From Patescibacteria group bacterium (lineage in GTDB: Bacteria; Patescibacteriota; Minisyncoccia; JAHIHE01; JAGLIN01), in contig JAYEKL010000063.1 in the NCBI GenBank assembly GCA_034660995.1, positions 5,449 through 46,377 of the forward strand: 40,929 nucleotides of DNA, written 5' to 3'. The notes beneath the pieces are model-generated. The model saw only the letters and a program-made list of their open reading frames with translations. It was not told the DNA's origin and did no database searches. Both the position numbers and the translations under genes were made by a program. This document shows, piece by piece, positions 6,991-37,700 of this stretch (position 1 is the first letter of the stretch; the number at the start of each line of letters is the position of its first letter).

Positions 6991-7088
6991 TAGGTATGGC
7001 CTTTTCTTATAATTCCCCTCTAGAGAGGGGGTTGGGGGTGTGTTAAAAAGCTTGTTACACACCCCTTACCCCTCTCAAGAGGGGAATA
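6991..7088 (+). repeat. Family-A GC-rich triple-hairpin element, copy A1
   Basis: ttttcttataattcccctctagagagggggttgggggtgtgttaaaaagcttgttacacaccccttacccctctcaagaggggaata. Hairpins are cccctct/agagggg, ggggtgtgt/acacacccc and cccctc/gagggg. Termini are inverted (aattcccctctagagagggg vs cccctctcaagaggggaata). Confidence 0.85.
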
Positions 7089-7143
7089 GTCTCCTGGATG
7101 GCCATCTGGATATTGCTGTTTTGTATAAGGTCACATTTATTAT

Positions 7144-14695: not shown

Positions 14696-14793
14696 AGGCT
14701 CTGCTGATTTTCTTATAATTCCCCTTTAGAGAGGGGGTTGGGGGTGTGTTAAGAAGCTTGTTACACACCCCTTGCCCCTCTCAAGAGGGGAAT
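14696..14793 (+). repeat. Family-A element, copy A2 (inside the ribosomal operon, between rpmJ and rpsM)
   Basis: aggctctgctgattttcttataattcccctttagagagggggttgggggtgtgttaagaagcttgttacacaccccttgcccctctcaagaggggaat. It is followed at 14797-14820 by a D-arm-like cttaaatactaaatacta. Confidence 0.85.
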
Positions 14794-14823
14794 CCCTACT
14801 TAAATACTAAATACTATAAGTGT

Positions 14824-17907: not shown

Positions 17908-18024
17908 GCTCTGCTGATTTTCTTATAATTCCCCTCTAGCCTTGTCCGCCTTGGGAGGGAGAGGGGGGTTAGTTGGTGTGTTAAAAGCTTGTTACACATC
18001 CCTTGCCCATCTCGAGAGGGGAAT
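17905..18024 (+). repeat. Family-A element, copy A3 (with extra insert in first hairpin); begins at the rplQ stop codon
   Basis: taggctctgctgattttcttataattcccctctag + ccttgtccgccttgggagggagag + gggggttagttggtgtgttaaaagcttgttacacatcccttgcccatctcgagaggggaatag. The first three bases (TAG, 17905-17907) are the rplQ stop. Confidence 0.8.
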
Positions 18025-18083
18025 AGCCATTATTTGAGGAAAATAACGAATCTGTCTGTAGTAATACTGTATATATTTTTTAA

Positions 18084-20276: not shown

Positions 20277-20575
20277 GTGTTAAGTATTAAGTATTAAGGT
20301 TTTTGTTGCATGAATATTTGAATTTAACTTATTTGAACCATTTTTGCAAATTAATATTTTTTTAAAAATTGCTTAAACAAACTAGGATTTATTATTCATA
20401 TAATAAAGTAAATAAAGTCTGCTGATTTTTTTATAATTCCCCTCTAGAGAGGGGGTTGGGGGTGTGTTAAAAAGCTTGTTACACACCCCTTGCCCCTCTC
20501 AAGAGGGGAATAATCGGTAGTCCCTAAGTATAAAATATTAGGCTTAATACTTGATACTAAATACTTAATACTAAT
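20277..20575 (+). mobile_element. D-type terminal arms enclosing unrelated cargo that includes A4
   Basis: Left arm agtgttaagtattaagtattaagg (20277-20298) and right arm ggcttaatacttgatactaaatacttaatactaat (20541-20575) are inverted. The interior lacks the D core but contains A4. Confidence 0.55.
20419..20512 (+). repeat. Family-A element, copy A4
   Basis: ctgctgatttttttataattcccctctagagagggggttgggggtgtgttaaaaagcttgttacacaccccttgcccctctcaagaggggaata. Confidence 0.85.
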
Positions 20576-21871: not shown

Positions 21872-24613
21872 ATGAAAAAAGTTTTTAAATTGGTAATATT
21901 TTTAGTTTTAGTGGTTTTAATATGTAATACTGCTAAAGCTGTTAATATAGTTCCTTCTGCTATTATAGGGAATACTATTCAAGATGAAAATGATACTATT
22001 GTTATCACTTTTAATGAGTCAGTAACAGCTGCAGATGGAAATTGGTCTAGTAATGAGTTTACTTCTATTAAGAGTCCAATCGGAGTGTCTTTATCTTTGA
22101 CTAACGCATCTTTTGCTTATAGTGGCAATGTTTTAACAATTACACTGGATTTAAATACGGATAACGCCTATCTTAAAAATGGAAATATTATTGCTGTAAC
22201 TCCCGCTCTAGAAGCTATAGTTGACAGTACTTCTAATTTTTTACCAAATAATGAAGTACGAGGAACAATGGCAGTAACTGGAGATACTAGCGCTCCAATG
22301 GTAGCTTTGACTTATGACCCAGATAGAATAGTGGAATATACTGATTTTATAACCATAACTGCAACTTTTAGTGAGAGCTTGGAAGAATCTTCTCCATGTC
22401 CGTCAATTGCAATTAATACAGAAGGAGATGGAAGTCTAAGCAGTACAAATATGTCTAAGGTTTCTGAAACGGTTTGGACATATATCTGGGAAGTCCCAAA
22501 TGGTATTGACGAAAATGGAGTTGCTACTATTAATATTAATGCTACTGACTTAGCTGGAAATTATAGTCAAGTTGCTGCAAATAACACAAGAAATGTTAGT
22601 AATAGTTATGATGCGGTCAGTCCCAATATTATTGATGATTTGGAAGTTTATGCCACTACTAGCAACACTGCGACTTTAATTTGGAAGGCGCCGGGAGATG
22701 ATGGTGATATTGGCGTAGCCTCAAATTATGATATTAGATATGCATTATCGCAAGCTGAAATTTTGAATTGGTATGCTGCCACTCAGGTTAATAATGAGCC
22801 AAAACCTCAAATTGCCGGAACAAATCAAACTATAACTGTAACTAATCTTGATTCAGACGCGACCTATTATTTTGCTATAAGAACTTCAGACGAAGCGTTA
22901 AATATATCGTCACTGTCCAATATTGCTGATGGAATTACGCTAAAACCGTTAGACGAGACTGCTCCAGATGTTGTGACAGATCTAATAGTTTCTTATGTTA
23001 CTTCAAATTCTGCTGTTTTAAGCTGGATAGCGCCGGGAGATGATCGTGATATTGGAACTGCAACGAGCTATGATATTAGATATTCATCTTCGCGTTTGTC
23101 AACTTTAAATTGGTATGCCGCGACACAAATTAACAACGAACCACAACCGCAAATTGCCGGAGCTAATCAAACTGTAACAGTAAACGGACTTGATGCTAAT
23201 GCGACTTACCATTTCGCTATGAAAACTTATGATGAAGTAGAAAATGTTTCCGCAATATCTAACATAGTCAATGGTACTACCTTAGAGTTAGTAGATACTG
23301 TTACTCCTGATGTCATTACAAATTTAAAAGTTTCTCGTGTTACTTCAAACTCTGCTGTTTTAATTTGGACAGAGACTGGCGATGACGAGGATATTGGAAC
23401 TGCTTCAAGCTATGATATTAGATATTCAGAAAAGCCTATTAACGAAGTTGTTTGGTCGTCTGCGAATAGACTTAATCGTTCGATTAATCCATACATTGAT
23501 GGGGCAAATCAGACTGTTACTGTTACTGGACTTGATCCAGACACAATTTATTATTTCGCCATAAAAGTTTCCGATGAAGCATCAAATGTTTCAGAGTTAT
23601 CTAATATTGCAACAGGGACTACTTTAAAATATCTTGATAGAGTTGCGCCAGAAAGAGTGCGTGAATTTAATATAACAAGCTTATCAAAAATAAATAGCAC
23701 TGCTGTTATAACATGGGTAAATCCTGCTAATAAGGATTTTTCTAATGTGTTATTGATTAGAAGTGAAGATAAATATCCTTCACATATTGATGACGGAACT
23801 GTAATCTATAAAGGAAAAGGTAGTATTTTTAAAGATACTAAAACAGAAGATGAAAAAGTCTATTATTATAATATTTATTCTTTTGATAATGACGATAATT
23901 ATTCATTACCAGCGCAGAAAGTGTTTTTTTCTAATAATACGCTTGTAAAAAAACGCTATGAAGATAAAATTTATGTCGTGATTAACAGTGAAAAGCGCTG
24001 GATTCCAACGCCGGGAGTATTTAATAGAAATAGATATAAATGGGAAAATATTTATGAATTTTATGATAATATTATTGATACTATAAAAACTGGTGAACAT
24101 ATAGAGGATGATGAAGAAATAAAACTTGTTAAAAGTATGAACAGTTCGCGAGTTTATCTTATCAAAGGATACAGAAAAATATGGATTAAGACTATGAACG
24201 CATTTGTTGGCAGTGGATATGAATGGAAAAATATTATTGATATGGATATAAACGAGATAAGGGCTCACAATGATATAAAATTAATAAAGGAAGAGAATGA
24301 TTATCGTATTTATTATGTTCATAGTGAAATTGGAATGAAAAGACTTATTCCAAATATGATAACGTTTTTGTCGTATCCTTCAAGTAAGTGGGAAGATATT
24401 GAAATAGTAAGTAGAGCAATAGCGGATAGTTATGAAAATATAAATCTAATTAGAAGATTTGATGATTGTAATGTTTATCTTCTTGAGAATGGAGTTAAAA
24501 GACGTATTATGTCGCAAGAGGTTTTCAATGCAATGGGTTTTGATTGGAATAAAATAGCGGAAATAAATAATACCGAATTTAGCCAATACGAAACAGGTCA
24601 GAGTATTTATTAG
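21872..24613 (+). CDS. Secreted surface protein with tandem fibronectin-type-III-like domains and C-terminal repeats
   Basis: Signal peptide MKKVFKLVIFLVLVVLICNTAKA. Three 114-aa tandem units have an FN3-like pattern (TSNSAVLxWxAPGDDxDIGTAxSYDIRY...ATYYFAIKxxDE). Four C-terminal repeats follow, of the type VYLIxxGxKRxIxxxxxFxxxGxxWxxI. Confidence 0.8.
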   Translation: MKKVFKLVIFLVLVVLICNTAKAVNIVPSAIIGNTIQDENDTIVITFNESVTAADGNWSSNEFTSIKSPIGVSLSLTNASFAYSGNVLTITLDLNTDNAYLKNGNIIAVTPALEAIVDSTSNFLPNNEVRGTMAVTGDTSAPMVALTYDPDRIVEYTDFITITATFSESLEESSPCPSIAINTEGDGSLSSTNMSKVSETVWTYIWEVPNGIDENGVATININATDLAGNYSQVAANNTRNVSNSYDAVSPNIIDDLEVYATTSNTATLIWKAPGDDGDIGVASNYDIRYALSQAEILNWYAATQVNNEPKPQIAGTNQTITVTNLDSDATYYFAIRTSDEALNISSLSNIADGITLKPLDETAPDVVTDLIVSYVTSNSAVLSWIAPGDDRDIGTATSYDIRYSSSRLSTLNWYAATQINNEPQPQIAGANQTVTVNGLDANATYHFAMKTYDEVENVSAISNIVNGTTLELVDTVTPDVITNLKVSRVTSNSAVLIWTETGDDEDIGTASSYDIRYSEKPINEVVWSSANRLNRSINPYIDGANQTVTVTGLDPDTIYYFAIKVSDEASNVSELSNIATGTTLKYLDRVAPERVREFNITSLSKINSTAVITWVNPANKDFSNVLLIRSEDKYPSHIDDGTVIYKGKGSIFKDTKTEDEKVYYYNIYSFDNDDNYSLPAQKVFFSNNTLVKKRYEDKIYVVINSEKRWIPTPGVFNRNRYKWENIYEFYDNIIDTIKTGEHIEDDEEIKLVKSMNSSRVYLIKGYRKIWIKTMNAFVGSGYEWKNIIDMDINEIRAHNDIKLIKEENDYRIYYVHSEIGMKRLIPNMITFLSYPSSKWEDIEIVSRAIADSYENINLIRRFDDCNVYLLENGVKRRIMSQEVFNAMGFDWNKIAEINNTEFSQYETGQSIY
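22610..23635 (+). repeat. Three exact-length 342-bp tandem coding repeats (FN3-like units)
   Basis: Unit starts (Asp codons of DAVSPN / DETAPD / DTVTPD / next DRVAPE) fall at 22610, 22952, 23294 and 23636, each 342 nt apart. Confidence 0.85.
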
Positions 24614-24652: not shown

Positions 24653-24962
24653 TGTCATCTCAATCCGCCGGCTGGCGGAGAGAGATCTATAAGCTAAACA
24701 AGTCTCATTTAAACCTTTCTTATTTCCTGTATAGTATAGCTTACAGACCTGCCTGTCCGGCAGGCAGGTTTCTCACCCTATCGGGATTTGAAATGACAGT
24801 TACAAAAACTTGTCATCTCGACTGGAGCGATAGCGAATCTCGAAAAAATGCGTTGATGTCATCTCGACTGGAGCGATAGCGGAATGGAGAGATCTGTGAA
24901 CTGATTAAATCTCACATAGCATAGTTCTTAAATTTCTCACCCTATCGGGATTCGAAATGACA
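24653..24962 (-). repeat. Family-B composite hairpin-repeat cluster, copy B2 (reverse orientation)
   Basis: Contains tgtcatctcgactggagcgatagcg... twice, ttctcaccctatcgggatt(c/t)gaaatgaca twice, and tgtcatctcaatccgccggctggcggagagagatct. The reverse complement matches the B1/B3 order, including the linker ctatacaggaaataagaaaggtttaaatgagacttgttta. Confidence 0.85.
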
Positions 24963-24990
24963 GTTATGAAAAGTGTTCTTTTACACCCTA

Positions 24991-25024
24991 AGTCTATTTT
25001 GCAACGGCCGTTGCAAAATAGACT
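24991..25024. repeat. Perfect 34-bp palindrome
   Basis: agtctattttgcaacgg|ccgttgcaaaatagact: 17-bp arms with no spacer and a GC-rich centre (cggccg). Confidence 0.9.
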
Positions 25025-25055
25025 ATATTTATGAAAGTTTTGGGTATAAAGCAAT

Positions 25056-25083
25056 AAAAGACGATTATGAATCGTCTTTTTTG
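25056..25083 (+). terminator. Rho-independent terminator (ends the FN3-protein transcription unit)
   Basis: Stem gacgatt/aatcgtc (25060-25066 / 25070-25076), 3-nt loop, then tttttt. Confidence 0.7.
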
Positions 25084-25156
25084 TTTTACAATAACGATAG
25101 TTTGTGCTATTGTGAAAACGTTGTATGATTAAAATTAATTCAATATATCAAAAAAT

Positions 25157-26548
25157 ATGACACAAAAAAACGAAGATTTAATGGACAAAATAGTTTCACT
25201 TGCTAAAAGAAGAGGTTTTGTTTTTTCTGGAAGCGAAATTTATGGCGGTTTGGCGAATACTTGGGATTACGGACCTGTCGGGGTTGAATTGAAAAATAAC
25301 ATCAAGCAGGTTTGGTGGAAGTTTTTTGTTAAGAGTAGAGAAGATGTTGTCGGAATAGACGCTGCGATCTTAATGAATAGTCGTGTTTGGAAAACATCTG
25401 GGCATGTGGCTGGATTTAACGATGCTCTTGTTGACTGTCGGGCTTGTAAAGCAAGAATCAGAGTTGATCATTTAATTGAAGACAGTTTGAATATGAAGGC
25501 TGAAGGGATGACCACTGAAGATATGACGAAATTAATAGAAGAAAATGATATTAAGTGTCCAGTTTGTGGAAAAAAAGATTTTACAGATGCCAGAAAATTT
25601 GGTCTTATGTTTAAAACTTATCAGGGAGTGACGGAAGAAGATAAAAATATAATTTATCTTCGTCCTGAAACAGCGCAGGCGATGTTCGTAAATTTTAAAA
25701 ATGTTTTAAATTCTACACACAAAAAAATTCCATTTGGCATAGCGCAAATTGGGAAAGCATTTCGCAATGAAATAACACCTGGAAATTTTATTTTTAGAAC
25801 AGTTGAATTTGAGCAGATGGAACTTGAGTATTTTATTGATGAAAAGAATTGGGAAGAATCGTTTAAATATTGGCAAAAAGAAATGGCAAGTTGGCTTGAT
25901 CATATTGGCATAAAAAAAGAAAATTATTCAATAAGAGAGCATGATAAAGACGAGCTTTCGCATTATAGTAAAAAGACAATTGATTTTGAATACGATTTTC
26001 CATTTGGAACAAAAGAGCTTTATGGACTTGCGTATCGGACTAATTTTGATCTAACAAGTCATCAAAATTCAAGCGGGCAAAATATGGAATATTTTGATAC
26101 AGAAGGTAATAGAAAATATATCCCACATGTTATTGAGCCGACATTCGGAGTTGATAGAACTATTCTCGCGGCAATGGTTGATGCTTATTGCGAGGAAGAA
26201 GTATCAACGGCAAATGAAAAAACAGAGACACGAGTGGTAATGAAATTCAATAAAAATATCGCGCCAGTAAAGGTCGCAATTCTGCCTCTTAGCAAAAAAG
26301 AAAATTTAAGCAAAAAGGCAAAATATATTTTTGATTTACTAAAGACAGAATTCGCCTGCCAATACGACGAATCACAAAGCATTGGCAAGCGCTACCGTCG
26401 ACAAGATGAGATCGGCACGCCGTATTGTGTGACGGTTGATTTTGAGTCGTTAGAAGATGATGCGGTGACGGTGAGAGATAGAGATACGATGGAGCAGGAA
26501 AGGGTGAAAGTTGAGGAATTGGTAGGATGGTTGAAAGATGTTTTTTAG
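25157..26548 (+). CDS. glyQS: Glycine--tRNA ligase (alpha2-type class II)
   Basis: 463 aa with RRGFVFSGSEIYGGLANTWDYGPVGVELKNNIKQVWW, YLRPETAQAMFVNF, GIAQIGKAFRNEITP and EPTFGVDR. The last ~195 nt are visibly more GC-rich than the rest of the gene. Confidence 0.93.
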   Translation: MTQKNEDLMDKIVSLAKRRGFVFSGSEIYGGLANTWDYGPVGVELKNNIKQVWWKFFVKSREDVVGIDAAILMNSRVWKTSGHVAGFNDALVDCRACKARIRVDHLIEDSLNMKAEGMTTEDMTKLIEENDIKCPVCGKKDFTDARKFGLMFKTYQGVTEEDKNIIYLRPETAQAMFVNFKNVLNSTHKKIPFGIAQIGKAFRNEITPGNFIFRTVEFEQMELEYFIDEKNWEESFKYWQKEMASWLDHIGIKKENYSIREHDKDELSHYSKKTIDFEYDFPFGTKELYGLAYRTNFDLTSHQNSSGQNMEYFDTEGNRKYIPHVIEPTFGVDRTILAAMVDAYCEEEVSTANEKTETRVVMKFNKNIAPVKVAILPLSKKENLSKKAKYIFDLLKTEFACQYDESQSIGKRYRRQDEIGTPYCVTVDFESLEDDAVTVRDRDTMEQERVKVEELVGWLKDVF

Positions 26549-26598
26549 AGTGTAAGTTTTTGGTTTCTTAGAGTTTTAGAGTCATTAAAATGTGTTAA

Positions 26599-26660
26599 TG
26601 TCATTCAGTATGAAATAAATTCAGAGTCTGTCCTGAATTCAGTTCAGGAATGACAACTAT
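26599..26660 (+). repeat. B-type hairpin unit (ctgaattcag subtype)
   Basis: tgtcattcagtatgaaataaattcagagtctgtcctgaattcagttcaggaatgacaactat. Its 3' half is nearly identical to 29625-29666. Confidence 0.8.
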
Positions 26661-26710
26661 ACTTTTCGATTAAATTGAAAACTTAATAATCATAATATAA
26701 TATTAATATT

Positions 26711-26845
26711 ATGAAGAAAGATAAAACATACTATATTTATATTATAGCAAACATTACTAACAATGTTTTGTATAATAGTAGAAAAATAATTTACATTGAT
26801 GATCTGGAATTTAATTCGCAAGGCTGTTTTTGCCAGAAGAAGTAA
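26711..26845 (+). pseudogene. Truncated GIY-YIG nuclease gene (only the first ~22 codons are homologous)
   Basis: MKKDKTYYIYIIANITNNVLY matches MKTDRAYYIYITTNITNNVLY of the intact gene at 29206. A 27-nt identical run (caaacattactaacaatgttttgtata) ends at about 26776, after which the frame runs into unrelated sequence. Confidence 0.7.
26779..26794 (+). repeat. Left copy of perfect 16-bp direct repeat tagaaaaataatttac
   Basis: Identical 16-mer at 28310-28325. It lies 2-3 nt after the point where GIY-YIG homology stops. Confidence 0.9.
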
Positions 26846-26848
26846 AAA

Positions 26849-26876
26849 TTGACTTCTTTCTAAAATTTAGTATAAT
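26849..26876 (+). promoter_or_regulatory. Putative promoter of the ATPase gene (inside the cassette)
   Basis: TTGACT (26849-26854), 16-nt spacer, TATAAT (26871-26876). Confidence 0.5.
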
Positions 26877-26913
26877 TTAAATTAGGATAATCAGGATTAG
26901 GATAATTCAAATT

Positions 26914-28269
26914 ATGAAATTTATAAACAGGGAAAGAGAATTAGAAGCGATAAAGGAAAAATTAAATTCTGAGAATTTTGAATTTTATGTTATTTATGGG
27001 CGAAGAAGAATTGGCAAAACAGCTCTTTCTCTAATAAGTGTGAAAAATAAAAAAGCCATTTATTATCTAGCGACCGAAGAAAACAATTTGAGAAGATTCA
27101 AAGAAGTTGCTTCTAAATTAATTCCAGAAGTAAAATACGCCGAAGAAGATTTGGAAGCGATTTTTAGTTTTTTGAAAAATAAGACAATAATTATAGACGA
27201 GTTTCCAAATTTGATAAAAGAAAATCCAAAAGTTGTTTCGGAAATGCAAAGGATTATAGACCTTGTCCTAAGGGAAACAAAAACGAAACTGGTTATTTTA
27301 GGGTCGTCTATATCTATGATGGAAAGCAAGGTTTTGAGCTATCGCTCTCCTTTGTATGGAAGAAAGACCGGACAGATAAAACTGAAACCTTTGAAATTTT
27401 CGCAAATGAGAAAGTTTTTTCCCAAAGCGTCCGCGGAGAGAGCGGTTGAAATTTTCGGTTTTGCCGACGGAGTTCCTTTTTATTTGGAAAAAACAAAGTA
27501 TCCCTTTTGGAAATATTTGGATAAAGAATTAAAAAGCGTAGATAGCTTTTTAAAAACAGAAGTTGATTTTTTAATGAAATATGAATTTTCAGAAACAAGA
27601 ACTTATAAAAAGATTTTAGAAGCGATTGCTCTTGGGAATACCAAGTCAGGTGAAATTAAAAATCAAATCGGATTTAAAAAAACAGATATAACTCCGTATT
27701 TAAAAAATTTAATAGAAACGGAGTTCATTGAAAGAGATGTTCCTCTCTTAGAATCCGCAAAATCAAGAAAGGGAAGATATTATATCAAAGATAATTTTGT
27801 GAATTTTTGGTTTAAATTTATTTATCCAAATCGCAGTTTTATGGAAGAGGGAATTTTTTCCGCTGGTGAAATAAAAGAAAAGTATAACGCTTATCTCGGC
27901 TTTGTTTTTGAAAAAATTTGCCGAGAATTCTTAATTGAAAAAAGGAAAAAATTACCGGTTAATTTTTCAAAAATCGGTAGACAGTGGGGCGCGATTCCCG
28001 GCGCTGAAAAAAGAAAGAATCAATATGAAATTGATCTGCTTGCTTTAAACGATAAAACAAAGCAAATTATTTTTATAGAATGCAAGTGGCAGAATTTAAG
28101 AAAAGGGCAAGCGAGAAATATTTTAGAAGAATTAAGAGAGAAAAGCGGTGTTATTGAATGGAACAATAAAAAGCGGAAAGAATATTTCTGTTTAATGGCG
28201 AAGAAAATTGAAAATAAAAAAGAGCTGAGAAAAGAAGGATTTTTAGTTTTTGATTTGGAGGATTTTTGA
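26914..28269 (+). CDS. AAA-type ATPase of the archaeal-ATPase/DUF234 type with PD-(D/E)xK-like C-terminus
   Basis: 451 aa with Walker A GRRRIGKT and Walker B TIIIDEF. A central wHTH-like segment (KKILEAIALGNTKSGEIKNQIG) follows. The C-terminal YEIDLLAL...IIFIECKW resembles a restriction-endonuclease-fold D...ExK motif. Confidence 0.8.
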   Translation: MKFINRERELEAIKEKLNSENFEFYVIYGRRRIGKTALSLISVKNKKAIYYLATEENNLRRFKEVASKLIPEVKYAEEDLEAIFSFLKNKTIIIDEFPNLIKENPKVVSEMQRIIDLVLRETKTKLVILGSSISMMESKVLSYRSPLYGRKTGQIKLKPLKFSQMRKFFPKASAERAVEIFGFADGVPFYLEKTKYPFWKYLDKELKSVDSFLKTEVDFLMKYEFSETRTYKKILEAIALGNTKSGEIKNQIGFKKTDITPYLKNLIETEFIERDVPLLESAKSRKGRYYIKDNFVNFWFKFIYPNRSFMEEGIFSAGEIKEKYNAYLGFVFEKICREFLIEKRKKLPVNFSKIGRQWGAIPGAEKRKNQYEIDLLALNDKTKQIIFIECKWQNLRKGQARNILEELREKSGVIEWNNKKRKEYFCLMAKKIENKKELRKEGFLVFDLEDF

Positions 28270-28309
28270 TTTTTGTTAAAATATGTTTTCCAAATTGGAA
28301 AAAAAATGA

Positions 28310-28325
28310 TAGAAAAATAATTTAC
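28310..28325 (+). repeat. Right copy of perfect 16-bp direct repeat tagaaaaataatttac
   Basis: Identical to 26779-26794. Its last bases run directly into the glyQS 3' remnant. Confidence 0.9.
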
Positions 28326-28522
28326 CTGCCAATATGACGAATCACAAAGCATTGGTAAGCGCTATCGCCGTCAAGATGGAATTAGCACGCCCGTATTGTG
28401 TGATGATTGATTTTAAAAGTTTAGATGATAACGCAGTAACAGTGAGAGATAGAGATACGATGGAGCAGGAGAGGGTGGGGATTGGGGAGATAAAAAAATA
28501 TTTAGAAGAAAAATTAAGATAG
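28324..28522 (+). pseudogene. Displaced, frameshifted 3' remnant of glyQS
   Basis: Hand alignment to 26354-26548 gives about 123 of 146 identical nt up to ggagcagga, plus a 1-nt indel (gcacgcccg vs gcacgccg) that breaks the frame. It encodes ...CQYDESQSIGKRYRRQD then, after the shift, ...PYCVMIDFKSLDDNAVTVRDRDTMEQERV. It has its own stop at 28520-28522. Confidence 0.85.
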
Positions 28523-28526
28523 ATGT

Positions 28527-29186
28527 ATGAGCGAAATAATTATAGTTAAATTATTGTTTGTCATTGGTCCTATTATGCTTATTACCATGGTAGTGTTTTT
28601 AGCTGGAGTATGGCGCAATAAAAAAGCAAACTATTATAAAGAATTGATGATAAATAATATAATTTGTACGACAAACTTTGAAAAAAACAAATATGGAAAT
28701 TTAAAAGGCATTTATAATAATAAGAAAATATTAATAAAGTTTTATTTATTTGATATATATGCTATGCCAGAAAATTCATTTACAATAAATATTGAAACTA
28801 ATTTTTATGATGCGTCAAAACAAGCATTTGTTCCTAAAACATATTTTATTTTAAAGCAAAAAGAGTCATTTTTTAATTTGAAGAAAAAATCAAATGTAAA
28901 TTCTAATGATTTTGAAAATAGTTTTAATGTGAATAATAAGTATAATTTATCATTTGATAATAAAATTAAACAAAAATTAGAAATTCTTTTAAAAAACAAA
29001 TATTTTAACGCTTATACAAAATTAAAAGTTCAATCACCATCTAAAAGTCATGTTCAAAATAGAGGAAAAGTTGTTTTTGAAAAAATAAACAGTAAAATCA
29101 GTAAAAATTCTGATTCTCTTAAAATGGCTATGGATATTGTGGTTGATATAGCGAAACAGATGGACGAGATGAAAATGGGGAGGTGA
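28527..29186 (+). CDS. Hypothetical N-terminally anchored Asn/Lys-rich protein
   Basis: 219-aa ORF starting 4 nt after the glyQS-remnant stop. It has a TM (LLFVIGPIMLITMVVFLAGVW) and no recognisable motif. Very AT-rich, so its coding status is moderate. Confidence 0.45.
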   Translation: MSEIIIVKLLFVIGPIMLITMVVFLAGVWRNKKANYYKELMINNIICTTNFEKNKYGNLKGIYNNKKILIKFYLFDIYAMPENSFTINIETNFYDASKQAFVPKTYFILKQKESFFNLKKKSNVNSNDFENSFNVNNKYNLSFDNKIKQKLEILLKNKYFNAYTKLKVQSPSKSHVQNRGKVVFEKINSKISKNSDSLKMAMDIVVDIAKQMDEMKMGR

Positions 29187-29205
29187 AAATTAGGATTAAA
29201 GTGTT

Positions 29206-29496
29206 TTGAAAACAGACAGAGCATATTATATTTATATCACAACAAACATTACTAACAATGTTTTGTATATTGGAATAACTAATAATTTACCAAAAAGAAT
29301 ATACGAACATAAAAACGGTTTGGTAAAAGGTTTTTCTAAAAAATATAAAGTTAACAAATTAGTATATTATGAGAATACAAACGATGTAAATTCTGCTATT
29401 GCGAGAGAAAAGCAATTAAAAAATTGGCATCGGGAGTGGAAAATGAATTTAGTAGAAGCTAAAAATCCAGGATTTGTCGAGTTATTTATAAGTTGA
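29206..29496 (+). CDS. Small stand-alone GIY-YIG nuclease (UPF0213/YhbQ-like)
   Basis: 96 aa (TTG start) with YYIYITTNITNNVLYIGITNNLPKRIYEHK (GIY...YIG...R...E), KLVYYE and AIAREKQLKNWHREWK. Confidence 0.85.
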   Translation: MKTDRAYYIYITTNITNNVLYIGITNNLPKRIYEHKNGLVKGFSKKYKVNKLVYYENTNDVNSAIAREKQLKNWHREWKMNLVEAKNPGFVELFIS

Positions 29497-29507
29497 TATG
29501 TTATGCT

Positions 29508-29666
29508 TGTCATTCTGAACTTGTTTCAGAATCTATAGTATATTACAGTAAATTAACCTACAAATCACAGACTAAGTGTAGCAGTCAAAAGATCCTGAAA
29601 CCCGCTATCCAGCAGGCACGGCAAGTTCAGAGCCTGTCCTGAATTCAGTTTAGGGATGACAACTAT
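29508..29666 (+). repeat. B-type hairpin units directly downstream of the GIY-YIG gene
   Basis: tgtcattctgaacttgtttcagaatct ... agatcctgaaacccgctatccagcaggcacggcaagttcagagcctgtcctgaattcagtttagggatgacaactat. Confidence 0.8.
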
Positions 29667-29667
29667 G

Positions 29668-29793
29668 TTTGAGTTGAGCCTAGGTTGTACTATCCAAAGA
29701 TTGGGGGGAGTAAGAATTGAGGATTTGGTTGTAGTAACAAAAACTGGATGCAAAAATCTTACAAAATTTCCGAAGTTTTTGGAGATAAAATAG
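29668..29793 (+). pseudogene. 3' remnant of an M24-family Xaa-Pro peptidase gene
   Basis: The frame ending at TAG 29791-29793 reads F-ELSLGCTIQRLGGVRIEDLVVVTKTGCKNLTKFPKFLEIK. GGVRIED...VT..G...LT..PK.L is the conserved C-terminus of PepP/PepQ-type enzymes. No upstream part of the gene is present. Confidence 0.55.
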
Positions 29794-29817
29794 AACAAAT
29801 AATTTCTACCCGGTTTT

Positions 29818-30125
29818 AGCTGATTTTCTTATAATTCCCCTCTAGAGAGGAGGTTGGGGGCAGGGTAATTCACTCTTGACAAAATAAACCTGTCATTCCG
29901 ACCGGAGCAAGCGAGGCACGAGCGAGCGGAGTGGAGGAATCTGTAAACACAATTATGTTTTGCTTATTTAGCAAATTACATTTTATCCGCTCACAGATCC
30001 CTCGGCTCCTATCGTTGCTCGGGATGACAAAAATGAGAAGATTTTAGGAGGAGTGAATTACCCTGGGGTTGGGGGTGTGTTAAAAAGCTTGTTACACACC
30101 CCTTGCCCCTCTCAAGAGGGGAATA
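29818..30125 (+). repeat. Family-A element, copy A5, split by insertion of another element
   Basis: The left part tagctgattttcttataattcccctctagagaggaggttggggg (to 29860) and right part gggttgggggtgtgttaaaaagcttgttacacaccccttgcccctctcaagaggggaata (from 30066) together reconstitute an A copy. Confidence 0.85.
29861..30065 (+). mobile_element. 205-bp MITE with perfect 15-bp terminal inverted repeats, inserted into A5
   Basis: TIRs cagggtaattcactc / gagtgaattaccctg. It is flanked by duplicated ggttggggg (29852-29860 and 30067-30075). The interior holds two opposed B-type units (tgtcattccgaccggagc...ggaggaatctgt and cagatccctcggctcctatcgttgctcgggatgaca). Confidence 0.85.
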
Positions 30126-30161
30126 ATTGGTAAAATAAATTTATAATTAATTTAAAAAACA

Positions 30162-31130
30162 ATGACAAAGAAAACAAACACAATGACAGTTAAACAAATT
30201 TATGATCTGGCGGTTAAGATGGGCGTTAAAACGGATTTTAGATCTAAGGAGGATATGGAAGATCTTCTAAAAAGAGAAAAAGATAGTTATAATAATCTTA
30301 AGAAGGAAGAGAAAAAAGATTATAATATGGAAAGATTGGTAAATCCATATTTGGATTCTGGTATTCTTAATTTAAGTTCAGACAAACCAGTTAAAAGAAT
30401 ATTATCTGGAATAGATATGGATGAGGCAGAAATATTACTAGCGGATAGGCTTGGTAATATTGACCTTGCTTTAGGACATCATCCTCTTGGCAAGAACCTT
30501 GCGAATTTAGATTCAGTAATGCATCTCCAAGCAGATCTTCTTAGCCAATATGGTGTTCCGATAAATATTGCTGAAGGACTTTTGAAAGAAAGGATTTCAG
30601 AAGTTAGCAGGGGAGTTTCCCCGATAAATCACAATAAGCCCGTTGATATGGCTAGGATTTTAAAAATTAACTTAATGAACACTCATACTCCTTGTGATAA
30701 TATGGTTGCAAAATTTTTGGACGATAAAATTAAAGGGGCAAAAATAAAGTATGTATCTGATTTGCTTAAATTATTAAAATCAATTCCTGAATATAATATT
30801 GCTATAAAAAATGGAGCTGGACCACGCCTTTTTTCTGGAAGCGAAGATAATCGGGTTGGTAAAATTGCTTTAACTGAAATTACTGGAGGCACTTCGGGGT
30901 CAGCAAAAATTTATGAAAAAATGGCTCAGGCTGGAATTGGAACAATTATTGGAATGCATATGTCCGAAGAACATAAAAAAGAAGCAGAAAAAGCTCATAT
31001 AAATGTTGTAATTGCTGGTCATATTTCTAGTGATTCTATTGGAATGAATTTATTTTTAGATGAATTAGAAAAGAACGGTATTAAAGTTATTCCTTGTTCA
31101 GGATTAATTAGGGTTAAAAGATTTAAATAA
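30162..31130 (+). CDS. NIF3-family (DUF34) dinuclear-metal protein
   Basis: 322 aa with metal-ligand style motifs GHHPLG, THTPCDN and AGHISSDSIG. Confidence 0.7.
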   Translation: MTKKTNTMTVKQIYDLAVKMGVKTDFRSKEDMEDLLKREKDSYNNLKKEEKKDYNMERLVNPYLDSGILNLSSDKPVKRILSGIDMDEAEILLADRLGNIDLALGHHPLGKNLANLDSVMHLQADLLSQYGVPINIAEGLLKERISEVSRGVSPINHNKPVDMARILKINLMNTHTPCDNMVAKFLDDKIKGAKIKYVSDLLKLLKSIPEYNIAIKNGAGPRLFSGSEDNRVGKIALTEITGGTSGSAKIYEKMAQAGIGTIIGMHMSEEHKKEAEKAHINVVIAGHISSDSIGMNLFLDELEKNGIKVIPCSGLIRVKRFK

Positions 31131-34352: not shown

Positions 34353-34686
34353 TGTCATTTCGAACGGAGAGAGAAATCTATAAACTATACTATGCCAGAA
34401 ACGAGGAAGGTTTAAGTGAAACTTGTTTAATTCATAGATCTCTCCATTTCGCTATCGCTCCAGTCGAGATGACAAGTTTGTTTTATTCTTATTCCAAACA
34501 TAGTTGTCATTTCGAATCCCGATAGGGTGAGAAATCTGTAAGCGGATAAAATGGTTTGTTAGGAATAAATTAACTTGAAAACAGAGGTATAGTGTGCTTA
34601 CAGATCTCTCCATTCCGCTATCGCTTCAGTCGAGATGACATCTACGCGTTCCTTCAAGATACGCTATCACTCCAGTTGAGATGACA
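34353..34686 (+). repeat. Family-B composite hairpin-repeat cluster, copy B3
   Basis: Units present, in order: tgtcatttcgaacggagagagaaatct; agatctctccatttcgctatcgctccagtcgagatgaca; tgtcatttcgaatcccgatagggtgagaaatctgtaagcgga; cagatctctccattccgctatcgcttcagtcgagatgaca; plus a partial unit. It ends 32 nt from the leuS stop. Confidence 0.85.
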
Positions 34687-34717
34687 TCTACGCACTCCTA
34701 ACTTCTAACCTTCTAAT

Positions 34718-37700
34718 TCAAACTACCACATTAATTAATCTTCCTTTTACGAATATAATTTTTTTAATTTCTTTTTCCTCAATCCATTTTTTTAATTTTT
34801 CACTTTCAAGAGCGATTTTTTTTGCTTCCTTCTCTGAAATATCTGCTGGGACTTTAATTTGGTCGCGGAGTTTTCCGTTGACTTGAATTACGAGCTGAAT
34901 TTCACTATTTTTGGTAAGCTCAGGATCAAATTCTGGCCAAGATTGCAGATGAATACTTTCTTTTTCTCCAGATAATTTCCATAGTTCTTCTGTAATATGC
35001 GGAGCAAAGGGGGAGAGGAGAATTAAAAATATTGGATATTGGATATTGGATATTGTTTTTTGTTTTTCCATTCCATTTGCAAGAATCATCAATGAACTAA
35101 TTGCTGTGTTGAATTTTAAATTTTCTATATCTTCAGTAACTTTTTTTATTGTTTGATGTAATAATTGTTCTATATTTTTATCTTGTAGGGGCGCAAGATT
35201 TTGCGCTCTCTCATTGTTTGTAGCAACAAGTAGGGACGCAAAATTTTGCGTTCTCGTTTTATCGGGGAACACAAGATTTTGTGTTCCTACTTTGCTTTGC
35301 ATTCCCCAAACTCTTTCTAGAAATCTGTTCATTCCAATTAAACTATGTGTGTTCCATGGAATTGCATCGCCATATGGACCCATAAACATCTCATAGAGTC
35401 TAATTGTGTCTGCTCCATATTCTTTGATAACTTCATCGGGATTTACGACGTTACCGCGCGATTTGCTCATTTTTTGTCCATCTTCGGAAAGTATCATTCC
35501 ATGCGATCTCCTTTTTATGTATGGCTCAGCGGTATTCACATATTTTAGATCAAATAAAAACTTGTGCCAAAAACGAGAATAAAGAAGATGCAAAGTTGTA
35601 TGTTCCATTCCGCCGTTATATAGATCAATAGGCATCCAGTGTTTTAATTTTTTAGACGAAGCAAATTCTTTATTATTTTTAGAATCTATATATCGCAAAA
35701 AATACCAGCTTGATCCAGCCCAATTTGGCATTGTATCAGTTTCTCTTTTTGCGCTATTACCACATTTTGGACATTTCACATTTACCCATTTATCAATTTT
35801 TGCAAGAGGGGATTCACCCGTATCCGTCGGTTCGTAATTTTTTACTTCTGGTAATTCAAGCGGCAAGTCTTTTTTAGATAATGAGATATTTTCAGTTATA
35901 TTTATTTTTTCAAATTCCCAGCCAACAAGTCCGTTTTTTTGAATTCTATCAACGTAATCTTTTGTAAAACTGTAAGTTTTTTTCAAGTCATCTAATTTAT
36001 TTATTTTGATTTCCGGAATAATATTTTTTATTAAATCTTTTTTTTCAAACAGCTCTTCCAGATTTTTGAAATTATAAACTGTCTTTATTTTTACAATTTC
36101 AAAATCATCCGTGTTTTTATTATTTATCTTTATCAGATCACCAATTTTTATGTCTCCGAAATATCTTTCTTTTTCTTCAGGATTTAAAGCTCTGGTTTCT
36201 ACGGTTTTTCTGTCTGCGATGATTTGATTCCAAACATTATCATCTCTAAAATTAAGCTCCATCTTAATTTTAAATCTCCTTGAACCACATTCTTTACACT
36301 TCACAATCGGAATCGGTTCGCCCCAATAATGCTGTCTCGAAAAAACCCAATCTCTTAATTTATAATTTACCGCCTTTTTGCCGAGTTTATTTTTTTCCAG
36401 CCATTCGGTTATTTCTTTTTTAAATTCAGCTGTTGTAAGTCCATTAAATTGTTCTGAATTTATGGCAATTCCGTCTTCTGATAAAAATTTTTCCCCATTT
36501 TGAAAAATATCCCAATGAATTTCTAATTCCGACAAATTTATAAAATCCTTTACCTTTTCTTTTTCTAGCCAAATGCCATTATGGTTTTTTACCTCCTCTT
36601 TTTTTGGTTCTATAAAACTGTTGTCTAATAATTCTATGTAAATACAATTTCTTTTCAAATCGCAACGATTAACATCTTTATGCGCCGCAAAAAAACGACT
36701 GTAAATTGTATTTCCAATTCTTTTAACAACACGCATATTTTGATAACCGGATTCTTCTTTTGCTTCTCTAAGAGCTGCTTCTTCAGCACTTTCTCCTTTT
36801 TCAATGCCACCGACTACAAAAGTTTTCCAATCATTTTTACTTTTACTCCAGTCTAAGCAAAAATATTCATCTTTTTCCCAGTGTTTAATAATTACATCCA
36901 CAACTTCTCTTTTTGTATTTTTTTTGTCTTTCCTGATTTTATTTTTACCCTCACCAATAAATAATGGCGCTATAACTTGTCTTATCTCCAACCCAAATTT
37001 TTTCGCAAACTCAAAATCCCTTTCATCATGCGCCGGCACCGCCATAATCGCGCCCGTGCCATAAGAAGCCAAAACATAATCCGCGATCCAAATTGGAATT
37101 TCTTCGTTATTAATCGGATTTATCGCTTTAATCCCTTTCAATTCAACCCCCGTTTTTTCTTTTGCCAAATCAGTCCTGTCTAAATCAGATTTTTGCTTAG
37201 CTTTTTCAATATATTTTTTCACTTCTTCCAAATTCAAAATTCTAGATTCCAAATTCTTTATCAAATTATGTTCAGGAGACAAAACCATATAAGTACATCC
37301 AAATAAAGTATCGGGTCTGGTGGTGAAAACTTCAATAAATTTTGAATTTTGAATTTGTAATTTTGAATTTATTTGTAATTTGGAATTTGTAATTTGGAAT
37401 TTAATAGTCGCTCCTTCCGATTTACCAATCCAGTTAATCTGCTGTGTTTTAATTTTATCTAAATAGTCAACTGTTTCTAGGTCTTTAATCAATCTGTTTG
37501 CGTATTTTGTTATTCTAAGCATCCATTGTTTCATAGTCTTCTTTTCTGTTGGCGCGCCGCATCTTTCGCAAGCATCATTGACAACTTCTTCGTTTGCTAA
37601 TCCTATTTTACAGTCGGGACACCAATTGATTGACATTTCCGCTTCATAAGCCATTCTTTGATTATCAATGTATTCTTTTTTCTCATTGTCGTTTAAATCT

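Follow-up and report, generated by a model that had tools for sequence, protein, structure and literature searches.

How did a perfect 16-nt direct repeat come to stand on either side of a single ATPase gene, in the genome of a CPR (Pacebacteria-like) bacterium? We analysed a stretch of 40 929 nt (hereafter, the window) in which this repeat coincides with two points where homology to other genes breaks off. A sequence-only reading of the same DNA had left three options open: an att-like core, a long target duplication made by a mobile cassette of one gene, or a scar of recombination.

The direct repeat and its junctions

The 16-mer TAGAAAAATAATTTAC does occur as two exact copies on the plus strand, at 26779-26794 and 28310-28325, as had been read from the sequence; on the minus strand there is a single match with two mismatches, located within the ATPase gene. 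If two mismatches are allowed, the direct repeat lengthens to 21 nt (AAT[AG/GA]TAGAAAAATAATTTAC). By itself such a repeat is weak evidence in DNA of roughly 30% GC: an identical 16-mer pair within 3 kb turned up in 31% of the windows simulated under a first-order Markov model, and the window carries a second pair (27902/29071) of the kind expected by chance. The earlier argument, that an exact 16-nt repeat at both junctions is hardly a matter of chance, holds with regard to position: both copies fall at homology breakpoints, and it is this placement at both junctions that makes the pair non-random.

On the left, homology of a truncated GIY-YIG gene ends at ∼26774, a distance of 4 nt from the 16-mer, slightly more than the 2-3 nt given earlier. 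On the right, the repeat runs straight into a glyQS remnant starting at 28326, exactly as had been described. All junctions recur base for base in two independent Logan assemblies made from two sequencing runs (contigs L001 and L002), which rules out an assembly chimera. In 1.3 Mb of fetched loci, the 16-mer was seen elsewhere only in contigs of the same population; copies that might have marked other insertion sites were absent from all the other loci fetched.

Remnants of a peptidase gene and an empty site

The closest syntenic relative, L142 (92% amino acid identity in GlyQS), is colinear with the window over the genes for ribosomal proteins L13/S9, FtsW, a fn3 protein, glyQS, pepM24, NIF3 and M3 peptidase, with 86% nucleotide identity on either flank; rpoA and L17 sit further upstream in L142. 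Its gene order is glyQS, a 203-nt spacer, an intact pepM24 and NIF3, and none of the ATPase, orf219 and GIY-YIG genes is present at this empty site. We found there a single homologous copy of the repeat core (13/16 positions) inside the intact pepM24, flanked by pepM24 sequence and by neither the GIY-YIG gene nor glyQS. By this alignment, the 16-mer is coding sequence (codons R-K-I-I-Y) of a destroyed Xaa-Pro peptidase gene, pepM24.

In the window pepM24 survives as three colinear fragments (nt 100-141, nt ∼43-120 and the C-terminus), all on the plus strand. The first, at 26774-26815 and left of the ATPase gene, corresponds to pepM24 nt 100-141 and matches L142 9695-9736, inside pepM24, with 88% identity (E = 3e-7). 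It comprises the left repeat copy (26774-26794, with the perfect 16-mer at 26779-26794; pepM24 nt ∼100-120, codons N-S-R-K-I-I-Y), whose peptide NSRKIIYIDDLEFN aligns with NGKKIIYVDDLEYN of L137, and its continuation at 26795-26815 (nt 121-141, IDDLEFN), identical to L142 pepM24 at 20/21 nt and 81% identical to L003 3288-3324. The next 29 nt (26816-26844), between this fragment and the cassette, are filler absent from L136 and L003. An extension of the pepM24 fragment through these nucleotides to the promoter was considered and rejected, the alignment being no better than with shuffled sequences (P = 0.38).

The second fragment, at 28279-28325 and right of the ATPase gene, matches pepM24 nt ∼43-120. 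Its first part (28279-28309; nt ∼43-53 followed by ∼85-99, with internal deletions) adjoins the ATPase gene as in L003. Within it the 11-mer AAATATGTTTT matches pepM24 of L142, L137 and L003, and the residues WKKND are in frame with LEKNG of L142 and contiguous with the right repeat. Taken alone, this decayed part is not significant in comparison with shuffles (P = 0.22); we call it pepM24 because it is colinear with the repeat. The right repeat copy itself (28310-28325) corresponds to pepM24 nt ∼105-120 (R-K-I-I-Y). The third fragment, at 29672-29792, retains the last ∼40 codons and the stop codon, with 82% nucleotide identity to L142 10588-10707; a run of 29 residues, GGVRIEDLVVVTKTGCKNLTKFPKFLEIK, is identical in L003 pepM24.

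When the right flank, one copy of the repeat and the left flank are joined, the product is KKNDRKIIYIDDLEFN, which aligns without gaps to EKNGKKIIYVDDLEYN of L137. By these alignments the direct repeat is a 16-21-nt overlap of two pepM24 5′ pieces, permuted around the ATPase gene. The pepM24 sequence runs inward from both copies (26795-26815 on the left, 28279-28309 on the right), whereas a target duplication would show the opposite layout. Moreover, each copy of the 21-nt repeat is one substitution away from the GGT codon of L142, as expected of diverged or heterologous copies rather than of a fresh target duplication.

The ATPase gene and the limits of the cassette

The interval between the repeats was earlier said to hold a promoter and one gene alone. 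It has indeed one ORF and a promoter-like site, but also the two pepM24 pieces (26795-26815 and 28279-28309) and the 29 nt of filler. The gene (26914-28269, plus strand) encodes a protein of 451 aa in which an ATPase_2 domain is followed by a winged helix and a DUF234 (PD-(D/E)xK) domain. Both Pfam domains score above their gathering cut-offs and in this order: ATPase_2 (PF01637) with 113.4 bits at residues 3-193 (cut-off 33.2), DUF234 (PF03008) with 96.9 bits at residues 299-403 (cut-off 22.5); a match to PDDEXK_11 remained sub-threshold. Walker A (G29-T36), Walker B (D95/E96) and the motif E372-I-D374 ... E389-C-K391 are present. Among 38 homologs, G29, R31, R32, G34, K35, T36, D95 and E96 are invariant and R30 is conserved in ≥90%; E372, D374, E389 and K391 are also invariant in the homolog alignment.

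The full-length AF2 model (pLDDT 91.6) found its best folds in 2qen, 2fna, ORC/Cdc6 and STAND ATPases. For the C-terminal domain (pLDDT 80.6) the best PDB matches were NucS/EndoMS, VC1899, AF1548, McrC and the nuclease domains of Can2/Card1; their scores are marginal (E from 7e-4 to 1e-2, TM 0.35-0.49), and nearly all of the top ∼15 are known PD-(D/E)xK-type nuclease folds. The initial call of an AAA-type ATPase with a DUF234/PD-(D/E)xK part agrees with the Pfam domains, the motifs and the fold matches, and the nuclease-fold similarity of the C-terminal part, marginal as it is, proved to be present.

The protein matches the PADLOC profile of PDC-S27 (PDLC04984) over residues 2-435 of 451 with E = 1.1e-44. 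PDC-S27 has been presented as a fusion of an ATPase with a PD-(D/E)xK domain, a candidate whose validation is pending (PMC12988326). By its profile match, then, the gene belongs to an already known defence candidate, and its defence label is that of a candidate. Most likely the protein senses DNA in a nucleotide-dependent, ORC/STAND-like manner, and its C-terminal PD-(D/E)xK domain would cut DNA in defence. A defence role, called pure speculation at first, is more than that given the PDC-S27 match and the AbiE genes found at the same spot in relatives (see below), though the role is a candidate one.

Upstream of the gene, the 5′ region of the cassette (26845-26913) has a predicted promoter TTGACT-16-TATAAT at 26849-26876 (−35 box 26849-54, −10 box 26871-76; 11/12 matches in a promoter scan) and three TTAG(G/T)ATAAT repeats at 26867, 26882 and 26897. 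The window is identical to L136 from AAAAATTGAC through the ATG of the ATPase gene. The TTAG(G/T)ATAAT motif stands upstream of the gene in 8/8 loci, with no further occurrence on that strand in the seven other loci. A stretch after orf219, AAATTAGGATTA (∼29187-29198), was considered as a relic of the ATPase operator; it is too short for evidence.

The unit conserved over the eight loci is 26845-28277 only: homology to L136, L003 and L006-L010 begins at 26845-26881 and ends at 28266-28281. The cassette therefore ends ∼50 nt inside the left repeat copy and ∼32 nt inside the right one. At the seven other copies the longest flanking direct repeats are 0-9 nt, within the range of shuffles. No terminal inverted repeats were found for the cassette, and no recombinase gene was seen among the surrounding ORFs examined (22-34 kb; ORF list and Pfam), the neighbours of the one-ORF interval being glyQS, orf219 and the GIY-YIG gene.

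Bacteria as well as archaea carry the cassette, in contexts unrelated to one another. In L003 the ATPase gene is followed directly by pepM24, and in the short contig L136, whose ATPase is 95% identical at the amino acid level, the C-terminus of orf219 lies directly upstream of the same promoter. The best matches to the ATPase in a genome collection were 66-70% identical and came from unrelated MAGs (Nanohalarchaeota, Cloacimonadota), with relatives of the host absent among them; no relative was found in the viral contigs searched. A metagenome scan with glyQS returned relatives at ≤60% identity only, mostly gut and bioreactor organisms. These comparisons characterize the ATPase gene as a probable stand-alone accessory gene travelling with its own promoter and operator-like repeats.

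Foreign glyQS fragment and flanking genes

The intact glyQS (glycine-tRNA ligase; 25157-26548, plus strand; NCBIfam NF003211, E = 1e-202), with the tail ...VGWLKDVF, is resident: the region 25007-26605 has 85.7% nucleotide identity to L142, through the stop codon. Import of the ...VGWLK tail together with the ATPase gene, suggested by L003 versus L137, was rejected; the closest homologs have ..WL(K/R)xAF tails and L142 is colinear through the stop. The same two facts make the displaced remnant the foreign copy. This remnant (28326-28522, plus strand) is a pseudogene of the glyQS 3′ end, with one frameshift caused by a 1-nt indel and the tail ..VGIGEIKKYLEEKLR. It is 77-84% identical to 26356-26548; its identity is 83% to glyQS of L143/L144 versus 77% to the resident copy. 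The differences from the resident copy are mostly synonymous or conservative, and the remnant's tail differs from the resident one with the ORF still preserved.

Four nucleotides further on lies orf219 (28527-29186, plus strand), a membrane-anchored product encoded after glyQS in donor-type genomes; it adjoins the glyQS 3′ end in L137 and L138 with the same 4-nt gap, and all 12 homologs found are CPR-like. At the right junction (28325/28326), pepM24 thus passes into a glyQS 3′ fragment of foreign origin, which arrived with orf219. The joint is a 7-nt microhomology, AATTTAC, formed by the last 7 nt of the right repeat copy and the donor glyQS; at the homologous point, glyQS of L138, L143 and L144 reads ..AAAACAGAATTTAC|(C/T)TGCCA and matches the 16-mer at 12/16 positions, seven of them contiguous. 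It was rightly cautioned that the flanks do not make up the two halves of a single gene.

On the left, a 5′ fragment of a second GIY-YIG gene (26709-26774, plus strand) keeps the start codon and 21 codons, with 81% nucleotide identity to 29204-29270 (tblastn, 71% over 21 aa); the YIG motif is lost after ...NNVLY. The intact GIY-YIG nuclease gene (29206-29496, plus strand; 96 aa; PF01541, E = 1e-18) carries AATAATTTAC, a 10-nt match to pepM24, at a distance of ∼10 nt from its counterpart of the left junction. We rejected this match as the exact left crossover, since the preceding six bases in the left copy are pepM24-like, not GIY-like, which places the left joint ∼5-15 nt further left; even so, the match may have helped the strands to pair, a hint that resemblance to this pepM24 segment steered the left joint as well.

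A short MITE-like repeat (TGTCATTC...GGAATGACAACTA; 26599-26658) occupies the spacer downstream of glyQS, and both Logan contigs break at it. Its part 26617-26660 is 91% identical to 29623-29666, which lies at a full-length MITE-like element (29510-29662) adjoining the pepM24 C-terminal remnant; 29508-29599 is 86% identical to L142 4903-4994. The resident right flank continues with the NIF3-like gene (30162-31130, plus strand; Pfam DUF34_NIF3), 86% identical to L142 11122-12128. Rfam and tRNA scans gave nothing in the region.

Relatives differ in what they carry at this spot: AbiEi/AbiEii in L137, L143 and L144, the PDC-S27 ATPase in L003 and, directly after orf219, in L136, and nothing in L142. 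Such variation indicates a hotspot.

Proposed history of the locus

We consider it probable, with some reservation, that the locus is a recombination scar made when foreign DNA was patched into a defence-gene hotspot, successive one-sided or illegitimate events having trimmed two copies of pepM24. The scar reading was among those first offered, and the pepM24 fragments, the empty site of L142 and the microhomology fit it.

The ancestral order would have been that of L142. A foreign promoter and PDC-S27-type ATPase cassette, with a 5′ part of pepM24 attached at its 3′ side as in L003, would then have been added to the resident locus through homology on one side (pepM24) and an illegitimate joint on the other, i.e. 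by Campbell-type integration or homology-facilitated illegitimate recombination. This would have duplicated the first ∼140 nt of pepM24, leaving one copy on each side of the ATPase gene. Subsequently, a GIY-YIG insertion and deletion would have removed nt 1-99 from the upstream copy, while a related genome could have supplied a block (the 65 final glyQS codons, orf219 and a GIY-YIG gene) that was joined via AATTTAC to nt ∼120 of the downstream copy, the middle of pepM24 being lost. What the two remaining pieces share, pepM24 nt 100-120, would be the 16-21-nt direct repeat, without a function.

Donor-like arrangements are found separately in L003, L136, L137 and L138. No intermediate genome with a long pepM24 duplication (e.g. 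spacer, pepM24 nt 1-141, ATPase, full pepM24) was present among the genomes searched; hence the order of events given here is a reconstruction, and their number is likewise inferred. At least three events are required, including two independent trimmings with breakpoints only ∼20 nt apart in pepM24; one event would be neater. The ∼20-nt spacing is not fine-tuned, however, as the overlap might have had any length between 0 and 140 nt.

Alternative explanations

A circular or tandem intermediate would account equally well for the permuted topology (repeat, pepM24 nt 121-141, ATPase, pepM24 5′ part, repeat). A circle of ∼1.53 kb with the ATPase cassette and pepM24 nt ∼1-141, possibly also glyQS′-orf219, could have come from a donor with the order glyQS′-orf219-ATPase-pepM24, been opened at the 16-mer, either through a staggered break or through a crossover at short homology, and entered the chromosome between the GIY-YIG fragment and foreign glyQS′. 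The repeat would then mark where that single event crossed over or was filled in, and would serve no dedicated att function. We regard this as unlikely, though worth keeping in mind. The topology is exactly that of a circle linearised at the repeat, and both junctions would result from one event. With orf219 directly upstream of the same promoter in L136, ATPase...glyQS′-orf219 is a circular permutation of a plausible donor, and AATTTAC at the pepM24/glyQS′ joint could be the circle-closing joint. Yet the repeat copies differ at 2/21 positions just outside the perfect 16, an odd GIY fragment/glyQS′ junction must have pre-existed in the chromosome, and the GIY-YIG genes and the lost middle of pepM24 still call for extra events. 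That the ATPase, its promoter and a stub of a neighbouring gene generally move as a recombinase-less circle of ∼1.5 kb, re-entering CPR genomes at AT-rich matches of the AATTTAC type and leaving a permuted stub with a 16-21-nt repeat, is a long shot; if true, it would be a minimal route by which single defence genes hop between genomes devoid of classical mobile elements.

Tandem duplications are common and unstable, and duplication in situ of the ATPase gene and the pepM24 5′ part in an L003-like ancestor would predict the same permuted order and the same junction of pepM24 nt ∼141 to the cassette start. Two later deletions or replacements would have taken most of the first copy and everything beyond pepM24 nt 120 of the second. 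We think this improbable: the two breakpoints must hit the same 21 nt, one in each copy, there is no trace of a second ATPase copy, and foreign DNA is required regardless for glyQS′-orf219.

The repeat as an att-like core, or as a target-site duplication due to a dedicated recombinase or transposase supplied in trans, with 26779-28325 as a self-contained single-gene mobile cassette, is very improbable. A perfect 16-nt repeat at both breakpoints, the partial copies of its 3′ half at homologous points of glyQS and the GIY-YIG gene, and the spread of the cassette over unrelated contexts in bacteria and archaea speak for it. Against it, the 16-mer is pepM24 coding sequence, with colinear pepM24 flanks that lie outside one copy but inside the other, the conserved cassette ends 32-50 nt inside the repeats, the seven other cassette copies lack flanking repeats and the other loci the 16-mer, and the two flanks do not add up to one split target. 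With no recombinase in the ORFs examined and no terminal inverted repeats, neither of these two readings is supported by the sequence comparisons.

That the repeat is no more than an AT-rich word repeated by chance, or that the assembly joined two strain alleles into a chimera, is hardly credible: for all the frequency of 16-mer pairs in simulated windows of the same composition and the additional pair in the window, both copies stand exactly at independent homology breakpoints, colinear with pepM24, and contigs of separate runs give identical junctions, and 16 nt is likely below the overlap length joined by short-read assemblers.

Comparison with known systems

A perfect direct repeat at two homology breakpoints may be the leftover overlap of successive patch-ins, not necessarily an att site, and one empty-site relative resolves the question of att versus scar. 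The locus illustrates, down to single bases, how a CPR bacterium in which no integrase is visible swaps single-gene defence candidates, AbiE or PDC-S27 ATPase, beside an essential gene, at the price of a housekeeping-type peptidase gene. Current views are not overturned by these findings.

Defence-island hotspots are flanked by core genes, and the interval downstream of glyQS, holding AbiE, a PDC-S27 ATPase or nothing, resembles them. The site differs in being tiny, with one or two genes and no integrase, and in that its turnover left debris (fragments of pepM24, glyQS and GIY-YIG, and MITEs) rather than clean swaps. Integrative elements targeting 3′ ends of genes and bringing a substitute 3′ end come to mind as well, given a diverged glyQS 3′ end downstream of an intact glyQS with accessory genes between them; here, however, the intact glyQS including its 3′ end is resident, the extra fragment is hitch-hiking donor DNA that came with orf219, and there is neither an integrase nor an att repeat within glyQS.

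Homology-facilitated illegitimate recombination and Campbell-type additive integration of transforming DNA have been described in Acinetobacter, Pseudomonas stutzeri and pneumococcus. The locus shares with them a one-sided homology anchor, a short microhomology joint, fragments of donor core genes and a duplicated anchor; the incoming DNA carries truncated donor neighbours, the glyQS′ 3′ end on orf219 and the pepM24 5′ piece on the ATPase gene as in L003. The difference is that the process is inferred here from a natural genome in which several successive events are superimposed. We know of no case in which such events have been dissected in CPR bacteria.

For the protein, the best structural matches to residues 1-∼295 are PAB2304 (PDB 2qen) and SSO1545 (PDB 2fna), archaeal Walker-type/AAA+ ATPases of the ATPase_2 family (Foldseek E = 2e-13 and 6e-11, TM 0.52-0.65), which, like it, have a helical and winged-helix module after a P-loop domain; ORC/Cdc6 and STAND/NLR ATPases are more distant. 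The matched chains are ∼350 residues long, and the matches exclude the C-terminal ∼155 residues of the query, which model as a PD-(D/E)xK fold. The full-length HMM match, both Pfam domains, the single-gene organisation and the ATPase-PD-(D/E)xK fusion agree with PDC-S27, an example of which, MJ_ECL04 from the large plasmid of Methanocaldococcus jannaschii, is 61% identical to the window ATPase at the amino acid level. Most of the named homologs come from archaea; the present copy belongs to a CPR bacterium and has a conserved upstream array of three TTAG(G/T)ATAAT repeats. These repeats accompany PDC-S27 genes across bacteria and archaea and could serve for studying the regulation of an abundant family.

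The repeat and its two junctions

The 16-mer TAGAAAAATAATTTAC occurs exactly twice on the + strand of the window, at 26779–26794 and 28310–28325, in agreement with the sequence-only reading. That reading placed the left copy at a GIY-YIG breakpoint, correctly, though 2–3 nt after it; the match of a 66-nt 5′ fragment (26709–26774) to the intact GIY-YIG gene (29206–29496) stops 4 nt before the copy. The right copy runs, as had been noted, directly into a decayed glyQS copy, glyQS′ (28326–28522; last ∼65 codons, one frameshift). Between the copies lie a promoter-like site (TTGACT-16-TATAAT) and one 451-aa ORF, but not these only, since pieces of the Xaa-Pro peptidase gene pepM24 are also inside (26795–26815 and 28279–28309). 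The junction structure is not an assembly chimera, because all junctions recur in two contigs that come from independent assemblies of two sequencing runs: L002 matches the window exactly across them, and L001 spans them with its two mismatches elsewhere (29168, 29407).

The repeat had been considered unlikely to arise by chance. For a bare pair of 16-mers this does not hold: in 31% of windows simulated with a first-order Markov model, some 16-mer recurs identically within 3 kb, and the window itself has a second such pair. At ∼30% GC the repeat by itself is weak evidence; its location at two independent breakpoints is the non-random part, and to this extent the argument stands.

Origin of the repeat in pepM24

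In L142, the closest syntenic relative (glyQS 92% identical at the amino acid level, both flanks 86% at the nucleotide level), glyQS is followed by a 203-nt spacer, an intact pepM24 (370 aa), orf137 and NIF3; the ATPase, orf219 (a membrane-anchored protein gene) and the GIY-YIG gene are all absent from this locus. Window positions 26774–26815 correspond to nt 100–141 of L142 pepM24 (88%, E = 3e-7), 28279–28325 to nt ∼43–53 plus ∼85–120, and 29672–29792 to the final ∼120 nt. The order in L003, a CPR relative with an 89% identical ATPase, is glyQS, orf89, ATPase, pepM24, orf195, NIF3. Its pepM24 matches window 26778–26814 at the DNA level, the C-terminus of pepM24 matches 29638–29790, and the gene next after the pepM24 region matches the NIF3-like gene of the window.

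The 16-mer encodes pepM24 codons R-K-I-I-Y. When the right flank, one repeat copy and the left flank are rejoined, the resulting KKNDRKIIYIDDLEFN aligns to EKNGKKIIYVDDLEYN of L137, another CPR relative. Since the pepM24 fragments are colinear and this alignment is gapless, the two copies are the ends at which two fragments of the pepM24 5′-region, permuted around the ATPase, overlap. The true overlap is 21 nt; immediately 5′ of the perfect 16, the left copy has the codon AGT and the right copy GAT, each one change away from GGT of L142. The gene is wrecked in the window (29668–29792) and missing from this locus in the CPR relatives L143 and L144; these reduced genomes either can do without pepM24 or encode it at another locus.

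Limits of the conserved cassette

We compared eight loci with close or distant ATPase homologs. In the closest copies, similarity to the window starts at 26845 (AAAAATTGAC...), and in distant ones at ∼26860–26880; it stops within a few bases of the ATPase stop codon. In L136, a CPR relative with a 95% identical ATPase, the stop codon of an orf219 homolog immediately precedes the shared block and a different gene is found downstream. The conserved unit therefore lies inside both 16-mers, with its ends ∼50 nt in from the left copy and ∼32 nt in from the right copy.

At the seven other cassette copies, no flanking direct repeat exceeds shuffle expectation, a search for terminal inverted repeats of the cassette detected none, and no recombinase gene was found at the locus. 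A search of 1.3 Mb of fetched loci found the 16-mer only in contigs of the same population. With the cassette ending inside the repeats and the 16-mer being pepM24 coding sequence, these observations argue against the att-like core or target duplication initially proposed.

The glyQS remnant and the right joint

The intact glyQS is the resident copy, because the window is colinear with L142 through the glyQS stop codon and 57 nt beyond, and because most of the closest homologs share its ..WL(K/R)xAF ending. The remnant glyQS′, with the ORF still preserved, has a different tail (..KYLEEKLR) and differs from the resident gene mostly by synonymous or conservative changes; its nearest match is the glyQS of L143/L144 (83%, versus 77% to the resident copy). 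In L137 and L138, CPR relatives with the same glyQS type as the remnant, orf219 follows glyQS after 4 nt. Because the gap in the window is identical, glyQS′ came in together with orf219, on a piece of a related genome.

Where donor-type glyQS genes align with the joint, they read ..AAAACAGAATTTAC|(C/T)TGCCA; AATTTAC and 12 of the 16 positions are common to them and the pepM24 16-mer, making this a microhomology joint. This joint and the overlap of pepM24 fragments support the recombination scar that the sequence-only reading had offered as an alternative.

L003 and its closest relative L137 have different glyQS tails (..VVGWLKEKFK and ..LKEYFKEKIT, respectively), with the rest of the gene ∼90% identical (90.5% overall at the amino acid level, 54% in the last 40 alignment columns), suggesting that island swaps at the site also recombine within the glyQS 3′-end. 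Right after the orf219 stop codon, AAATTAGGATTA (29184–29200) is similar to the operator region of the ATPase, AAATTAGGATAAT; in L136 the promoter of that gene begins straight after orf219. The sequence, too short for significance, may have been left by an earlier cassette that the GIY-YIG gene replaced.

Proposed order of events

The most likely sequence of events is as follows. The ATPase cassette with an attached 5′ part of donor pepM24, as in L003, would have been added to the resident locus by way of homology to pepM24 at one end and an illegitimate joint at the opposite end, leaving a copy of approximately pepM24 nt 1–140 on either side of the ATPase. GIY-YIG insertion and deletion would then have removed nt 1–99 of the upstream copy. 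Finally, the glyQS′-orf219-GIY-YIG block would have become attached to the downstream copy at nt ∼120, the middle of pepM24 being lost. The repeat would thus be a functionless remainder of a longer pepM24 duplication.

No genome intermediate between the proposed stages was found in searches of relatives. The same is true of a circle of cassette and stub, perhaps with glyQS′-orf219, opened at the repeat sequence in a single event; it yields the same topology, and we regard it as unlikely. In-situ tandem duplication followed by deletions also yields this topology, equally with no intermediate found among relatives, and is more improbable still.

Other repeats and genes in the window

Copies of a MITE-like element (TGTCATTC ... 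GGRATGACAACTAT), a break point of short-read assemblies, occupy two borders of the rearranged region (26599–26658 and 29510–29662) and positions 4903–4994 of L142; the element is ∼155 nt at full length and 60 nt in a deleted form. GC-rich palindromic intergenic repeats (GGGGGTTGGGGGTGTGTTAAAAAGCTTGTTACACACCCC..CCCCTCTCAAGAGGGGAAT) recur after many genes (6994–7089, 14700–14795, 17964–18026, 20418–20513, 29816–29909 and 30031–30126); they have no Rfam match and may be terminator-like or REP-like elements. A composite intergenic repeat of ∼250–300 nt (38–300, 24680–24970 inverted, 34389–34700) contains 46-nt tandem units (TGTCATCTCGACTGGAGCGATAGCG). Leucyl-tRNA synthetase (34718–38194, − strand) carries a NUDIX domain inserted at residues ∼451–547, also seen in L142, with a Ham1p-like match, and in L143; it is an unusual fusion conserved in the lineage. 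The 913-aa fn3 surface protein has three internal 342-nt repeats (22620–23622; 62–81% identity).

The ATPase family and the site downstream of glyQS

The initial gene call (ATPase with DUF234/PD-(D/E)xK) was correct. The product scores far above the thresholds of Pfam ATPase_2 and DUF234, and matches the PADLOC candidate PDC-S27 over the full length (E = 1e-44). It has >5000 homologs, the named ones mostly archaeal ‘ATP-binding proteins’; the family is found on 166 plasmid records, including the large plasmid of M. jannaschii (61% identity). In the AlphaFold model (pLDDT 91.6) the N-terminal part is nearest to archaeal ATPases 2qen and 2fna, then to ORC/Cdc6 and STAND/NLR ATPases. The C-terminal 156 residues, modelled separately, match, at marginal scores, PD-(D/E)xK-type nuclease folds almost throughout the top matches (nuclease domains of NucS/EndoMS, VC1899, AF1548, McrC and Can2/Card1), in line with the suggested nuclease fold; E372, D374, E389 and K391 are invariant across 38 homologs.

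Three 10-nt repeats TTAG(G/T)ATAAT with a 15-nt period (26867, 26882 and 26897; span 26867–26906) are located at −47, −32 and −17 relative to the ATPase ATG. At least one copy is present upstream of the ATPase in all eight loci (the window, L136, L003 and the distant loci L006–L010), archaeal and Cloacimonadota MAGs included; elsewhere on the same strand none was found in the seven other loci, and the window minus strand has one extra match. These repeats may be an operator for the winged-helix domain of the ATPase protein itself.

In a 2026 survey, PDC-S27 is described as a fusion of an ATPase with a PD-(D/E)xK domain, abundant in bacteria and archaea, validation of most such defence candidates being pending (PMC12988326). 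Given these matches and the survey entry, the gene is a member of an already catalogued candidate defence family.

At the site following glyQS, whether orf219 is present or not, three related CPR genomes carry a complete AbiEi/AbiEii pair (L137 5509–6757, L143 1651–2833, L144 1501–2683), L003 the ATPase and L138 a small ORF of no known identity, while the site is empty in L142; in L136, a short contig without glyQS, the ATPase is next to orf219. Because AbiE, the ATPase, another ORF or nothing is found at the same spot, it is a small hotspot for defence genes that lacks an integrase, and the locus a tidy example of integrase-free turnover of defence genes in a CPR genome.
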